A stretch of 59,234 nt of DNA, the filler included. It is 6 parts of 6 records of this genome, joined end to end, with 100 filler letters (N's around TTAATTAATTAA, not from the genome) between each part and the next. Parts side by side here need not be neighbours in the genome. Positions count along the whole stretch, not along the records: positions 47,720 to 59,234 come from SRR31156797_33044; 5 more parts are not named here. One strand, 5' to 3'. The translations under genes were made by a program, and so were the position numbers. The notes below the pieces were generated by a model, which saw only the letters and a program-made list of their open reading frames with translations, made no database searches and was not told where the DNA came from. Each line of letters begins with the position of its first letter. Positions within the stretch are counted from its first letter, which is position 1. Positions 19,481 through 52,013 of this stretch are shown piece after piece.

Positions 19481-19580
19481 NNNNNNNNNNNNNNNNNNNN
19501 NNNNNNNNNNNNNNNNNNNNNNNNTTAATTAATTAANNNNNNNNNNNNNNNNNNNNNNNNNNNNNNNNNNNNNNNNNNNN
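19481..19580. other. Artificial contig spacer
   Basis: 44 N + TTAATTAATTAA + 44 N. Confidence 0.97.
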
Positions 19581-25245: not shown

Positions 25246-25345
25246 NNNNNNNNNNNNNNNNNNNNNNNNNNNNNNNNNNNNNNNNNNNNTTAATTAATTA
25301 ANNNNNNNNNNNNNNNNNNNNNNNNNNNNNNNNNNNNNNNNNNNN
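25246..25345. other. Artificial contig spacer
   Basis: 44 N + TTAATTAATTAA + 44 N. Confidence 0.97.
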
Positions 25346-34805: not shown

Positions 34806-34905
34806 NNNNNNNNNNNNNNNNNNNNNNNNNNNNNNNNNNNNNNNNNNNNTTAATTAATTAANNNNNNNNNNNNNNNNNNNNNNNNNNNNNNNNNNNNNNN
34901 NNNNN
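34806..34905. other. Artificial contig spacer
   Basis: 44 N + TTAATTAATTAA + 44 N. Confidence 0.97.
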
Positions 34906-41598: not shown

Positions 41599-41698
41599 NN
41601 NNNNNNNNNNNNNNNNNNNNNNNNNNNNNNNNNNNNNNNNNNTTAATTAATTAANNNNNNNNNNNNNNNNNNNNNNNNNNNNNNNNNNNNNNNNNNNN
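41599..41698. other. Artificial contig spacer
   Basis: 44 N + TTAATTAATTAA + 44 N. Confidence 0.97.
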
Positions 41699-47619: not shown

Positions 47620-47719
47620 NNNNNNNNNNNNNNNNNNNNNNNNNNNNNNNNNNNNNNNNNNNNTTAATTAATTAANNNNNNNNNNNNNNNNNNNNNNNNN
47701 NNNNNNNNNNNNNNNNNNN
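47620..47719. other. Artificial contig spacer
   Basis: 44 N + TTAATTAATTAA + 44 N. Confidence 0.97.
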
Positions 47720-48190
47720 AACTTTATACTCTTCTCCCATATCAGCAAAGAATTTAATTGCATCTTCTCTAGTCATAACCTGTTTTTCTAATCTAATATC
47801 TTCTTTAACTATTTTTTTCATTTCAGCTTCAATTTTAGCTAAATCCTCTTCATGAAATTGTTCTTTTGGATCAAAATCATAATAGAATCCATTCTCAATT
47901 GAAGGCCCTATCGCTACTTTTGTTTCAGGATAAAGTCTAACTACCGCTTGAGCCATAAGGTGAGCAGTACTATGTCTAATGATCTCTACTCCCTCTTCAG
48001 TATCAGGTGTAATTATCTCTAATTCAGCATCTTCTACTAATTCATAACTCATATCAACTAATTGACCATTTACTTTACCGGCAAGTGCTTTCTTTGCCAG
48101 TGAATTACTTATACTTTTAGCAACGTTAAAAAGGTTTAACCCCTTTTCAAACTCTTTTACATCTCCACTTGGAAAAGTAATCTTAATCAT
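47720..48190 (-). CDS. thrS: Threonine--tRNA ligase, N-terminal part (3'-truncated)
   Basis: TGS domain (IKITFP.G), RHSTAHLMAQAV, IGP.IENGFYYDF. ATG at 48190 after AAGGAAGG. Confidence 0.95.
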
Positions 48191-48244
48191 ATCTATCAAC
48201 CTTCCTTAATGTAATTATAATTATTTAATTTTAAATTTTGTGAT

Positions 48245-48282
48245 AAAAATAAAAACCGTTCGAGTTTTATACCCGAACGGTT
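48245..48282 (-). terminator. Attenuator terminator in the thrS leader
   Basis: Minus strand AACCGTTCGGGT-ATAAA-ACTCGAACGGTT followed by TTTATTTTT, lying between the promoter and thrS. Confidence 0.85.
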
Positions 48283-48370
48283 ATCTTAATTGTTTAGAAT
48301 TAACCATACAGATACAAACCCGATTTATTTACATACTAAACTCGGATTTGTACTAAATACTCTACAAACC

Positions 48371-48418
48371 CTAGTTCAATGTGGTATCGGTAACTGTATA
48401 AATTCTCTTTCTAAACAT
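48371..48418 (-). CDS. Thr-rich leader peptide of thrS (MFRKRIYTVTDTTLN)
   Basis: ATG TTT AGA AAG AGA ATT TAT ACA GTT ACC GAT ACC ACA TTG AAC TAG. AAGGA RBS 9 nt upstream. Four Thr codons within six positions. Confidence 0.8.
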   Translation of the reverse strand: MFRKRIYTVTDTTLN

Positions 48419-48464
48419 AACTATCATTCCTTTTTGTTTTCAAAACATTGTATTAATTAAAGAA

Positions 48465-48493
48465 ATTATACTATATACAAGAATTAATGTCAA
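48465..48493 (-). promoter_or_regulatory. Consensus sigma70 promoter for leader-thrS
   Basis: TTGACA (48493-48488), 17-bp spacer, TATAAT (48470-48465). Confidence 0.88.
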
Positions 48494-48497
48494 GTTC

Positions 48498-51400
48498 TTA
48501 CATTCCAGCAGCAAATTCAATCTCTTCCTCGTCACTTTCTTTCTTAAATCCAAATGTTTTTTCAGGGAAAGTAAGTAAGTTAACACTGAATGAAACTACA
48601 TAATCATATCTCGTATATGTTGAGCTCCAATCAACTTCATAACCTAAAGTCCACTCTGCATACTCAAACTCTTTTCCTATATCAAGACTCCAATTATCTA
48701 ACTGTCTTTCTGTTACAGGATTTTCTATATAACTTTCAAATTTAACTGATCCTCCAAGTTTCCAAGCATGATCAAGTTTTCCAAATTTAGTTAAGAAAGT
48801 GAATTCATGAGTTTTACTTTCAACCTCTTTGGTATGCGAACCATCTGTTTCCTCAGTAATATCACTCTCTTCAGTATATTCATAAGTAACTTTTGTTCTT
48901 TCTTTATGGAATTCTGATCTTACTTTTAACTCTTCGTAAGCTTCGCCCATTCCTTCTTCTTCCATATAATCTTTATCTACTTTTGCCGTAGCATATACTC
49001 TATAGTACTCTTTATAAATAGTATCATCTGATATCTCACCAAGTCCCATTAAATTAAAATCATTTCCTAATGTTCTTTGATTCAATTCAGTAAATCTTCT
49101 TTCCAGTTCTGCTTCCTCTTCTTGAGTTAAAACAACTTGAAACTCTCCTGTTGAATCTTCATATACAACTTCTTCCTTTTTTTCCTCTTCAGAAGCCTTG
49201 TTATCGACATATGAATATTCTGCTGTATATTGATAATATGAATATTTTGTATTAATACTATCACTATAGTCAGCATAATCTAAATCAACTTTATGAGCTT
49301 TTACATTTTCTTCTCCAAAAATATAACCCAAGCCGTATGATTTTTTGATATTATCATCCGAATATTCATTTAAAGCTGTTCCACTTGTATTATAATAATC
49401 ATATTGCTGATTTGTTTCAACAGTATAATCCAATGCCCACCATTTTACATTTTTCTCTCCAAAACCATAGGCAAAACTGTCTTTTTTATTCGTATCTTCA
49501 TATCTTAAATATGGGTAAGTTGTTATTCTTTCTGAATAATTTTCAGTACTATCCACTTCACTTTTTCTAACTTTACTTACAGTTCTACTGTTTGAATAAG
49601 TAAACTCTTTGCCAGCATCAGCAAGAGTTAATTTCCAGTTATCTACTCTTTTATTATTATATCCGTCTGATTGAAAATCATTATTTATAGAATATAAAGT
49701 ATAAATTGTTCTTTCATCATCAACTTTGAAATCAATTGAATTTTCAAAATCTTCATCCGTTTTCCAGCTTGTATCATACGCGTCATAGTAATATTTCATA
49801 TCAATATTATATGCCGTTACAGTATTTCCAAGATCTAAAGTTACTGTATCTTCATAAAATCTTTCCTCTTTTTTACTTTCTAATCTATAATATTTTGAAT
49901 CGTTTTTATTCTCTATATATTGGTCATCTGAGTCAGGAAAACTTCTATTATTAGCTAGATAATTATAGAATAATGTTTCATAGCCAAATTCATTTTTCAG
50001 TTTTATATCAGCTTCTCTATAAAAATCCCAAGTATTATCATAAAGCTCTTTGCTAAATACAAATACAAAATTATGCTCTCTTAACTCATCTTCCTCAGCA
50101 AATACGTCTTGTCTTAATTTATATTTTGCATTTAAATCTCCTAACTTATATAAATTAATTTTTGTATCCTGAAGTTCAAGAGTCCTATATTTTGAATCAT
50201 TCTTAAATTCGTCATAGCCAGTTTCTTCATAATCATCTCTGTCCTTATACTCTTCGATATAAGTCCCGAGCCTTAATGCAGCACTTCTTGTTTTATAGCT
50301 TAACTCAATATCATAATATGTATCCTCAGTACTTTTTTCAATGATGTCAACTGTTCTATTATATTCTCTATCACGTTCATAAGCTTCATCTGTTCTAAAA
50401 GGGTCATCATCTCTATTTAATTTTTCATAATATGTTTGCGTATCATACTCTAAAGTAAGTTTATATTCTTCTTTAATTGAATAGTCACCCAGAGTTACTC
50501 TTCTCTCAGTTTCCCTTTTTACATCATATTTTGCTATAGTAAAAGGATTATAAACATCACCTGTTAATTCTTTAAGTTTAACACCGTCAGATTCTCTCTC
50601 AGATGATGAAAGAGTTCTCCATTGATCTTGCTCTTCGTTATTATAATACATGTCCAATTTATATTTTTTTAATTCTACTTGATACTCTCTTTGACTCTTA
50701 AATGATTTTGTATCTTCAGTTGTCGAACCAGGATCGAGATCTTCATATTCATCATAATGTAACATTACTTTATACGCTCTGTTATCTTTTGTCAGTTTAA
50801 TATTTGTCTCTAGTTCATTATCAACTTCTGCATCTTCATAATCATCTAGTACTTCCTCAGAAGTACTATTAATAATTTCTTTTAATACCTCTTCATTGTT
50901 TACATATTGTATCTTACCATAAAGTGCTATATCTTCTTCCGGACCTAATTGCTTTAGATCTGTTTCAAGCTGATATCTCATAAGTTTTTGCTCATAATTC
51001 TCATAAGGATCATCTTCATCTTCGTCTTCAGCTTCGTCTTGATCTTCTTCTACCGAATTAATTGTATTGATTGTTTGATTTTGGTATTCCCAATTTACTT
51101 TTCCTTTTTCACCTTCATATTCATGAGTATGTTCAAACTTCCATTGCTCTTCATAATCACCTGATGGCAAAAGCAGAGTTTCTGATAAACTCAACTTCCC
51201 TGAGTTACTTTCATTTCCTTTTACTTTATAAACATTATCCCACTGTTCTATATAAAATCCTCGTTTACTACTTTTTCTTAACGCAAAACTTCCATTTAAG
51301 TAGTTATTATTTCTTCCATAATCGAATCCCCAAATTATATAACTTCCATACTTCGTATCCGATCCAAACTTAGGAAATAGTGGTGCCTGTGTTTCTGCTT

Positions 51401-52013
51401 TTAATGATGTTGCATACCACGGTAACCATAAGACAGGTACTTTTCCAAAATAAAGCAGGTTATTATATGAAACAACTTTATCCCCCGGATAAACATTTAT
51501 TTTTTTTGCCTTCATATGGTATGGCAAAATCTCTTCCGGTTTTTGCGATACCTTGTTTATTTTAAGTGCTCTATGCGAGGTTGAGAACCATCCATTTTTT
51601 ATACTTGCCTGATCAGGAAATTGAGCCATAAACTCTTCCCCACCATAATATAGTCTATTGTGTCTCTCAGGGGCATCTTCAACAAGTACATACGAAACAG
51701 CATTATTCATCTTCGCTTCTTCATAATCTAAATTTAATATAAGTCTCTCAGCTTCAACCTTATTTTCCTCTTTTTGAAATATAACATCTTCGTCAGCCTT
51801 TACAACATTCATTCCCTCAAACTTTTTTAGTTGATATGCCTTAAGATCAATATCATTATATTTAAATTGAATTCCGCCTTCAGCCTTAAACTCATTACTA
51901 TTAAAATCTATTACAGCTTCTTTAGTCGCTATATCTAACTTACTACTCTCTTCCGAATATACAGGATATATATATATTATAAAAAACAATACAACTATTA
52001 TTTTTTTTGCCAT
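48498..52013 (-). CDS. Large LptD-like outer-membrane LPS-assembly protein (1171 aa)
   Basis: Signal peptide, OstA-like jellyroll N-terminus, YH..AK.I..YP......N.....G..PV.W.P.Y...L....P.FP.FG....YG motif, and a Tyr-rich alternating beta-barrel C-terminus. Confidence 0.7.
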   Translation of the reverse strand: MAKKIIVVLFFIIYIYPVYSEESSKLDIATKEAVIDFNSNEFKAEGGIQFKYNDIDLKAYQLKKFEGMNVVKADEDVIFQKEENKVEAERLILNLDYEEAKMNNAVSYVLVEDAPERHNRLYYGGEEFMAQFPDQASIKNGWFSTSHRALKINKVSQKPEEILPYHMKAKKINVYPGDKVVSYNNLLYFGKVPVLWLPWYATSLKAETQAPLFPKFGSDTKYGSYIIWGFDYGRNNNYLNGSFALRKSSKRGFYIEQWDNVYKVKGNESNSGKLSLSETLLLPSGDYEEQWKFEHTHEYEGEKGKVNWEYQNQTINTINSVEEDQDEAEDEDEDDPYENYEQKLMRYQLETDLKQLGPEEDIALYGKIQYVNNEEVLKEIINSTSEEVLDDYEDAEVDNELETNIKLTKDNRAYKVMLHYDEYEDLDPGSTTEDTKSFKSQREYQVELKKYKLDMYYNNEEQDQWRTLSSSERESDGVKLKELTGDVYNPFTIAKYDVKRETERRVTLGDYSIKEEYKLTLEYDTQTYYEKLNRDDDPFRTDEAYERDREYNRTVDIIEKSTEDTYYDIELSYKTRSAALRLGTYIEEYKDRDDYEETGYDEFKNDSKYRTLELQDTKINLYKLGDLNAKYKLRQDVFAEEDELREHNFVFVFSKELYDNTWDFYREADIKLKNEFGYETLFYNYLANNRSFPDSDDQYIENKNDSKYYRLESKKEERFYEDTVTLDLGNTVTAYNIDMKYYYDAYDTSWKTDEDFENSIDFKVDDERTIYTLYSINNDFQSDGYNNKRVDNWKLTLADAGKEFTYSNSRTVSKVRKSEVDSTENYSERITTYPYLRYEDTNKKDSFAYGFGEKNVKWWALDYTVETNQQYDYYNTSGTALNEYSDDNIKKSYGLGYIFGEENVKAHKVDLDYADYSDSINTKYSYYQYTAEYSYVDNKASEEEKKEEVVYEDSTGEFQVVLTQEEEAELERRFTELNQRTLGNDFNLMGLGEISDDTIYKEYYRVYATAKVDKDYMEEEGMGEAYEELKVRSEFHKERTKVTYEYTEESDITEETDGSHTKEVESKTHEFTFLTKFGKLDHAWKLGGSVKFESYIENPVTERQLDNWSLDIGKEFEYAEWTLGYEVDWSSTYTRYDYVVSFSVNLLTFPEKTFGFKKESDEEEIEFAAGM

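Follow-up and report, generated by a model that had tools for sequence, protein, structure and literature searches.

A putative threonine leader-peptide attenuator upstream of thrS in a Fusobacteriota-like contig and its relation to the trpB RNA motif

The gene for threonyl-tRNA synthetase (ThrRS), thrS, is regulated by a T-box in Bacillus and by a translational operator in Escherichia coli, and leader-peptide control of a synthetase operon is known from pheM-pheST of E. coli. In the enterobacterial leaders trpL, hisL, thrL, pheL and pheM, a short translated leader carries codons for the cognate amino acid, antiterminator and terminator hairpins exclude each other, and the position of the ribosome is the sensor. 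A leader with the same features was found ahead of a partial thrS on the minus strand of the last contig (SRR31156797_33044) of a 59,234-nucleotide (nt) stretch of assembled DNA, here called the window. It is very probably an attenuator of thrS transcription of the ribosome-mediated (leader-peptide) kind, with charged tRNA-Thr as the sensed signal. This mechanism is of a known type, here at a new gene and in a new lineage. We observed the sequence features, conservation of a Thr-rich short open reading frame (sORF), covariation of three helices (1:2, P1 and the terminator), and predicted folds that depend on the state of the ribosome. The enterobacterial leaders show no sequence or covariance-model similarity to the window leader, and enterobacterial thrL controls the thr biosynthetic operon whereas the window leader precedes thrS. 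The five alternating segments of the window leader match the B-to-F logic of the enterobacterial his attenuator; in contrast to enterobacterial leaders, the segment that the ribosome would cover begins at the stop codon.

The general mechanism of leader-peptide attenuation is described in PMC9413887, where a His leader of the his operon is predicted in Clostridioides difficile and other Peptostreptococcaceae. Further predictions are a His leader ahead of hisS paralogues in bacilli (PMC2965389), and thrL, alaL, trpL2 and leuL2 before synthetase genes in Streptomyces lividans (PMC8079986). These Gram-positive leaders share with the window leader cognate-codon peptides ahead of amino-acid or aminoacyl-tRNA synthetase genes outside the Proteobacteria; the Streptomyces thrL differs in having two Thr codons and no clear terminator (PMC8079986). 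Fusobacteria are not mentioned in this context in PMC9413887 and PMC2965389 (0 occurrences in each) or in PMC8079986. Literature searches, with subscription journals outside coverage, found no leader-peptide control in Fusobacteria, and a dedicated search with the same coverage turned up no threonine-codon leader peptide for threonyl-tRNA synthetase.

The T-box at thrS in Bacillus and other Firmicutes serves the same purpose, more ThrRS at uncharged tRNA-Thr, via antitermination; it senses by direct tRNA binding, whereas the window leader would sense by the ribosome. An older survey found no T-box in two genomes of Fusobacteria/Thermotogae (PMC2494555). The trpB non-coding RNA motif (Rfam RF04312; SRC-39-1, Narunsky et al., NAR 2024, PMC11109978) also resembles the window leader: a hairpin, P1, precedes an intrinsic terminator that can pair with its right shoulder, and the element lies in the 5' untranslated region of an amino-acid-related gene. 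In PMC11109978, over 900 representatives of the motif are described from Firmicutes and Fusobacteria; among the genes that they precede are trpB and one for an uncharacterised amino-acid ABC transporter. The motif was published there as a candidate riboswitch without a leader ORF and, with covarying P1 and terminator, was rated one of ten strong riboswitch candidates. Literature on the motif beyond this discovery paper was not found (subscription journals outside coverage), and none of PMC9413887, PMC2965389 and PMC8079986 ties attenuators to it.

Elements and predicted folds of the thrS leader

The promoter, ribosome-binding site, 15-codon Thr open reading frame (ORF), terminator and thrS named in the original prediction were each recovered at their predicted positions on the minus strand. 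The sigma-70-type promoter (48465..48493) consists of TTGACA (48493-48488), a 17-nt spacer and TATAAT (48470-48465), and a pattern scan of 47720-49200 returned it as the sole 12/12 match; transcription would start near 48458. The Shine-Dalgarno (SD) sequence AAGGA (48428..48432) lies 9 nt ahead of the ATG (48418) of the leader ORF, which encodes MFRKRIYTVTDTTLN in 15 codons and ends with TAG at 48373-48371 (ORF 48371..48418). The leader ORF is predicted to be translated. Four of its 15 codons are for Thr: ACA at 48397-95, ACC at 48391-89, ACC at 48385-83 and ACA at 48382-80. Half of these are ACC (2/4), compared with 4/153 Thr codons in the five long ORFs of the contig. The terminator stem (48282-48254) is followed by a T tract to 48245, from which it is a further 55 nt to the ATG of thrS (48190). 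This was the sole terminator-like site in 47720-49200, where shuffled sequences averaged 0.2. The 5' part of thrS (47720..48190, minus strand) has its own SD, AAGGAAGG, upstream.

The leader contains segments able to pair in alternative ways, all on the minus strand. Segment 1 (48363..48378) is the 5' strand of hairpin 1:2; its core, GGGUUUGUA (48371-48363), starts with the last G of the stop codon and has as its partner UACAAAUCC (48352-48344), the core of segment 2 (48337..48353). Segment 2 can pair either with segment 1 or with segment 3 (48296..48331), which supplies the 3' strand of P1 (48331-48312) and the 5' strand of the antiterminator (48318-48296). Segment 4 (48266..48286) is the 3' strand of the antiterminator and contains the 5' arm of the terminator (48282-48272) and its loop, and segment 5 (48245..48264) comprises the terminator 3' arm (48264-48254) and the U tract (48253-48245). 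Helix 2:3 is P1, an anti-antiterminator; helix 3:4 is the antiterminator, and helix 4:5 is the terminator. Helices 1:2 and 2:3 have 15 nucleotides in common. A further segment, segment 0 (UUAUACAG, 48394..48401), lies inside the ORF at the first Thr codon.

The 236-nt leader folded at -56.7 kcal/mol, compared with a shuffle mean of -37.9 (z = -4.7), and 0/200 shuffles were as good. When ribosome footprints were masked, the terminator probability in the window was 0.88 without a ribosome and 0.88 with a ribosome at the stop codon, and it dropped to 0.02 for a stall at Thr8 and 0.26 for a stall at Thr10, a flip at the first two Thr codons that agrees with the original prediction. In the stalled state, 14/15 nucleotides of the terminator 5' arm were sequestered by the antiterminator, a 20-bp helix that has the predicted AUGGUUA/UAACCGU pairing as its core. 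The predicted pairing of segment 0 with CUGUAUGG (48311-48304) formed in the ribosome-free fold of the window, and it would block the antiterminator. One segment had been given a choice of two motif copies, one of them at the leader stop codon, and both pairings occurred in the folds; UACAAAUCCGA pairs with the second copy, UCGGGUUUGUA. The pairings of the switch as first drawn all appeared in these folds, and the scheme itself was one layer short, in that segment 1 competes with P1, the anti-antiterminator hairpin. Pairing probabilities of the terminator 5' arm in truncated transcripts discriminated poorly. Thermodynamic folds back the switch in the window only.

The proposed mechanism is as follows. 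Transcription would begin at about 48458, and the 15-codon leader would be translated as the RNA emerges. With plentiful Thr-tRNA, a ribosome at the TAG would cover segment 1, leaving segments 2 and 3 to form P1; segment 4 would then be free to form the terminator with segment 5, and transcription would stop before thrS. With scarce Thr-tRNA, a ribosome stalled over the Thr codons would sit 12 nt or more upstream of segment 1, and hairpin 1:2 would form; segments 3 and 4 would then make the 20-bp antiterminator and RNA polymerase would enter thrS. Without any ribosome, the ORF-internal UUAUACAG would pair with segment 3 and the terminator would form (window only). The net effect would be more synthetase when charged threonine tRNA runs short. 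In this model both the stalling of the ribosome and the read-through response to Thr are predicted steps.

The core of segment 3 was found once in the stretch. The stretch is contained in one DNA run, which may be its source. In that run a 44-nt unitig over the segment-3/antiterminator core (48292-48335) had an extra depth of 68.9 atop about 40, and the assembly breaks there. Other attenuators in that sample may contain the same core.

Threonine leaders upstream of thrS in Fusobacteriota

We collected 113 Fusobacteriota thrS upstream regions (33 usable loci and 80 further extracted regions) and searched the last 330 nt of each for sORFs with an SD and ATG, a length of 8-30 codons and at least four identical residues in a 7-codon window. 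Counted blindly for each of the 20 amino acids, such sORFs turned up for Thr at 20 loci, for Asp at 1 and for the other 18 residues at 0. Each of the 20 loci has a promoter-like site, an SD, the Thr-rich sORF and then hairpins and a terminator. Conserved Thr-rich sORFs upstream of thrS, as expected from the original prediction, were thus present in 20/113 relatives, in leaders that are otherwise divergent.

The Thr leaders form six divergent groups, with MNSYMIKSTTTTSTTS, MLYGVFFHTTTTLTNN, MLELLISTTETTD, MRLLTTTTDTFI and MFKITTTTTNTFYRFGLVR as examples. Besides MNSYMIKSTTTTSTTS, the group patterns are MLYGVFF[DH]TTTTLTN[KN], ML..[LF].STT[EK]TT[DI], M[RN]LLTTTT[DN]TF[IF] and M..[IV]TTTTTNTFYR.GLVR. 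The Thr run is retained in all leader groups and the remainder of the peptide varies. In 16 distinct leader ORFs, 76 of the 234 codons (32%) specify Thr, compared with 5.4% in the long ORFs of the contig, and 27 of those 76 are ACC. A combination of rare ACC and common ACA would tune the leader to the charging of more than one tRNA-Thr species. Counting the window, 21/21 distinct Thr leaders have an SD-like site with an ATG sORF, and in 21/21 the terminator hairpin folds at -12 to -25 kcal/mol.

Several loci depart from this pattern. Two of them, L104 (G095) and L110 (G094), have a terminator and a weak leader, MNKFINIQITYTAK, with two Thr codons only, both the rare ACC; this leader may be degenerate or may work differently. 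The sORF of L151 (G106) and L154 (G113), of the M..[IV]TTTTTNTFYR.GLVR pattern, extends for eight more codons after the Thr run, and segment 1 falls within its 3' end. In these two, translation itself, not a ribosome parked at the stop codon, would melt hairpin 1:2, by the same logic in a different geometry. An apparent leader at L115 proved to be the C-terminal end of the gene upstream and was discarded.

The leaders share GGGUUUGUA(UC) directly after the stop codon, with a UACAAAUCC-like partner a few bases downstream. Seventeen leaders were aligned with MAFFT, leaving out L104, L110, L151 and L154, which do not align. The original prediction led us to expect covarying stems. In this alignment, helix 1:2 was paired in 94.2% of cells with 6/11 pairs changed on both sides, and the terminator in 97.9% with 7/11 pairs changed on both sides; slid controls gave 26-47% paired. 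The MAFFT alignment was out of register for P1 and the antiterminator, so P1 was counted solely on a model-fitted alignment of 30 sequences, where it too covaried (89% paired, 12/12 pairs changed on both sides). The terminator was 91% paired on that alignment, with 11/13 pairs changed on both sides.

The chain of exclusive helices was examined in minimum free energy (MFE) folds of transcripts cut short of the terminator 3' arm, with the masked ribosome footprint placed either over the stop codon or over the second Thr codon. The window leader had 15, 15 and 6 nucleotides in common across the three links, which was equalled by 1/100 dinucleotide shuffles. A chain of at least 2 was present in 17/21 distinct leaders, window included, each equalled by at most 5/100 shuffles.

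Small shares of the stretch were present in three metatranscriptome runs. One RNA-library contig, from a relative about 92% identical, covers 47720-48436, a span that takes in the available part of thrS, the terminator and the complete leader. Its end, some 22 nt past the predicted start of transcription, is a weak hint, as contigs show neither transcript ends, levels nor strand. All four of its indels are confined to the hairpin 1:2 loop and the spacer between terminator and SD, with none in the sORF or a helix, again a weak hint from one contig. Two RNA runs (X2, X4) contained only short thrS-coding pieces, with no leader information.

The trpB motif and a probable wider attenuator family

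The trpB motif model RF04312 matched 48244..48354 on the minus strand, over P1 and the terminator and over its full length (model positions 1-107), with 49.7 bits against a gathering score of 59 (E = 3.7e-6 in 411 nt and 1e-4 in 11.5 kb). No Rfam family reached its gathering threshold anywhere in the window. The other thrS leaders differ from the motif in scoring only 24-31 bits or nothing. A scan of the 20 leader-bearing thrS loci (65 kb) against Rfam gave no match at E ≤ 0.01; in small scans RF04312 was the top, non-significant, model for L154 (30.5 bits), L114 (24.6) and L151 (23.7), and the small scan of L142 gave no match.

Matches to RF04312 elsewhere were preceded by sORFs. In two Cetobacterium genomes, SD-bearing sORFs came before four of the five best matches. 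Two of these, ending in LHHHHRY and LHHHHR, each lie ahead of an SBP_bac_3 amino-acid binding protein; one ending in RQPIPPR lies ahead of PutP (TIGR02121), and one ending in VLLLLADLL ahead of an SNF-family transporter. Across 151 Fusobacteriota genomes, 60 had an RF04312 match at E ≤ 1e-3 and 10 had one above the gathering score. At 29 of the 30 best Fusobacteriota loci, an sORF with a codon run matching the downstream gene ended 14-36 nt before the motif. Eleven of them encode MKQILTTTMRYWQNWHR-type peptides, ten ahead of trpB (TIGR00263 verified for one); four have Trp-containing peptides ahead of a TrpX-type binding protein (NF041285 verified for one); and 14 have His-run peptides, of which 12 precede SBP_bac_3 proteins and one a HisZ-like gene, with the last at a contig end. 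All nine RF04312 matches in four Clostridia genomes followed sORFs with Phe, Tyr, His, Leu or mixed aromatic runs that match the downstream genes, which were read by eye.

A covariance model built from Thr leaders alone (window and group E) retrieved His and Trp leaders with E-values of 2.4e-7 to 9e-3. In the MFE chain test of 42 leaders of this wider family, for which a crude generic stall position was used, the first link shared at least 6 nt in 38/42 and the full chain was present in 18/42. The C. difficile hisZ leader MVRLDIVKLNTKLNHHHHHRLKGL, an RF04312-like match here, is presumably the leader predicted in PMC9413887.

Two further observations concern individual leaders. In the trpB leaders with MKQILTTTMRYWQNWHR (L214-L224, eleven loci), two or three Thr codons form a run upstream of two Trp codons. 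At L250 (G193, Paraclostridium), a His-containing sORF ending in MNTLIRLNLIHHHF and an RF04312-like element precede an N-terminus that by eye is of the class-II histidyl-tRNA synthetase/HisZ type; this may be another synthetase-type gene under leader-peptide control.

From these sequence comparisons, the trpB motif is probably the body of classic leader-peptide attenuators. We consider it likely that a single modular chassis, corresponding to the trpB motif, is re-aimed in Fusobacteriota and Clostridia through the codons of the leader ORF at no fewer than seven amino acids (Thr, Trp, His, Pro, Leu, Phe and Tyr). The leader ORF would end about 10-40 nt before P1, and the chassis would govern genes for biosynthesis, uptake and tRNA charging. 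The conserved P1 would then reflect common descent or a pause/timing signal, not a ligand pocket.

Alternative explanations, genomic setting and significance

Several findings weigh against a Thr-specific attenuator at this locus. Equilibrium folds of the window with stalls at Thr12 and Thr13 left the terminator probability at 0.88, and in full-length relatives the terminator dominated in every state, with a probability above 0.9. Given these two results, the switch must be kinetic. The leader was absent from thrS in 93/113 of the sampled relatives, and a TTT run occurs in the trpB leaders too, so the Thr run alone is not specific. Four of the 21 leaders (L104, L110, L107 and L119) failed the chain test. 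The P1 count comes from an alignment fitted to the P1 structure and so leans towards that structure, and the register of the antiterminator differs between groups, so its covariation is not countable. A close relative of the window's own leader type was not retrieved (best ThrRS identity 73-77% in the genomes, maximum 56% in the metagenomes), and conservation therefore rests on divergent leaders and the one RNA-library contig. Translation of the sORF and the response to Thr are inferred.

Other mechanisms could in principle produce the same arrangement of elements. P1 and the terminator might be a ligand-binding riboswitch or the site of a protein factor, with an incidental sORF, as was first proposed for the trpB motif. 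The strong rating given to the motif in PMC11109978 speaks for this. P1 is also conserved in primary sequence between operons and in two phyla; a plain attenuator would not usually show such conservation, and it could point to a binding site or a pausing signal. The downstream genes, however, cover at least seven amino acids, each with an sORF for its own amino acid, and a single ligand cannot explain such a family. The stop-codon segment also pairs and covaries with the 5' strand of P1, a pairing present in MFE folds of 38/42 wider-family leaders, which ties P1 formation to the position of the ribosome. The authors of the motif themselves left a classic attenuator possible (PMC11109978), and we regard a ligand or factor site as very unlikely. 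A sensor of general coupling between translation and transcription, or a terminator that simply belongs to the upstream outer-membrane gene, would leave the Thr codons without a specific role. The terminator lies 216 nt past the stop of the upstream 1171-aa gene and would end its transcripts too, and the Thr codons of the window leader, just four and broken up as T-V-T-D-T-T, make a less pronounced run than most relatives have. Against this stand the 12/12 promoter between the upstream gene and the sORF, the enrichment of Thr as the sole residue in sORFs 5' of thrS among the 113 relatives, and the over-use of rare ACC in leaders. In most relatives, moreover, the same large outer-membrane-type gene lies just 20-90 nt ahead of thrS, and neither a leader nor a terminator stands between the two, so the terminator arrived together with the sORF module. 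An explanation of this kind is improbable.

It is extremely unlikely that the leader ORF is idle and that thrS is controlled instead by ThrRS acting on its own leader, in the style of the E. coli thrS operator, or by T-box-like sensing of tRNA. Each of these mechanisms is known to act on thrS, in E. coli and Bacillus respectively. T-box control of thrS is kept in almost all Firmicutes analysed in PMC2494555, and T-box (RF00230) matches at E ≤ 1e-3 were found in 24/151 Fusobacteriota genomes (G063, G081, G083 and 21 others), with 1-3 matches each and 3 above the gathering score. None of these matches lies at thrS by coordinate comparison in the 151 genomes. In line with the lack of a T-box motif pointed out in the original prediction, the T-box model gave no match at E ≤ 10 over the leader (48150-48560, 411 nt). 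The Thr_leader model (RF00506) gave none there either, and no T-box match reached the gathering threshold in the window. On the leader of one relative, RF00506 gave 16.6 bits (E = 5.2). The 84 nt around the thrS SD and ATG folded at -6.7 kcal/mol (z = 0.36), and 125/200 shuffles were as good; in this comparison with shuffles there were no stable hairpins next to the thrS SD and hence no operator-like structure. The same backbone also controls transporter and biosynthetic genes whose products do not bind RNA, which argues against binding of ThrRS or tRNA.

The stretch consists of six contigs joined by N44-TTAATTAATTAA-N44 linkers (19481-19580, 25246-25345, 34806-34905, 41599-41698 and 47620-47719). 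GC content is 0.29 in the last contig (47720-59234) versus 0.41-0.51 in the other five, and the bin probably mixes several organisms. The thrS gene is cut by the contig end at 47720, leaving 156 codons; over these the product has a TGS domain and a match to the N-terminus of TIGR00418 thrS, and the ThrRS open frames of relatives are 637-660 aa long. The fragment is nearest to Fusobacteriota, with 67-70% identity to Cetobacterium metagenome-assembled genomes. A ThrRS match was obtained in 188/190 Fusobacteriota genomes, with a best identity of 73-77%, and a metagenome scan for close ThrRS relatives gave identities of only 45-56%. The upstream gene (48498-52013, minus strand) encodes 1171 aa with no Pfam or NCBIfam match; it is a conserved, unnamed gene of outer-membrane type that adjoins thrS in this contig and, judged by similarity at the C-terminus, in many Fusobacteriota that lack the leader. 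On another contig (41699-47619, GC 0.51), pentapeptide-type repeats make up most of two long ORFs (857 aa and 362 aa), which are unrelated to the attenuator.

A Thr leader peptide would be a third solution for thrS control, in a phylum with little-studied RNA regulation. For RF04312 a classic attenuator is the more likely explanation, with the sensing part, the leader ORF, falling immediately beyond the limits of the motif as published. If that is true, ligand hunts for RF04312 would be spared, and the substrates of unnamed transporters would be predictable from the codon run of the leader. The chassis would then be a ribosome-based counterpart of the T-box regulon.

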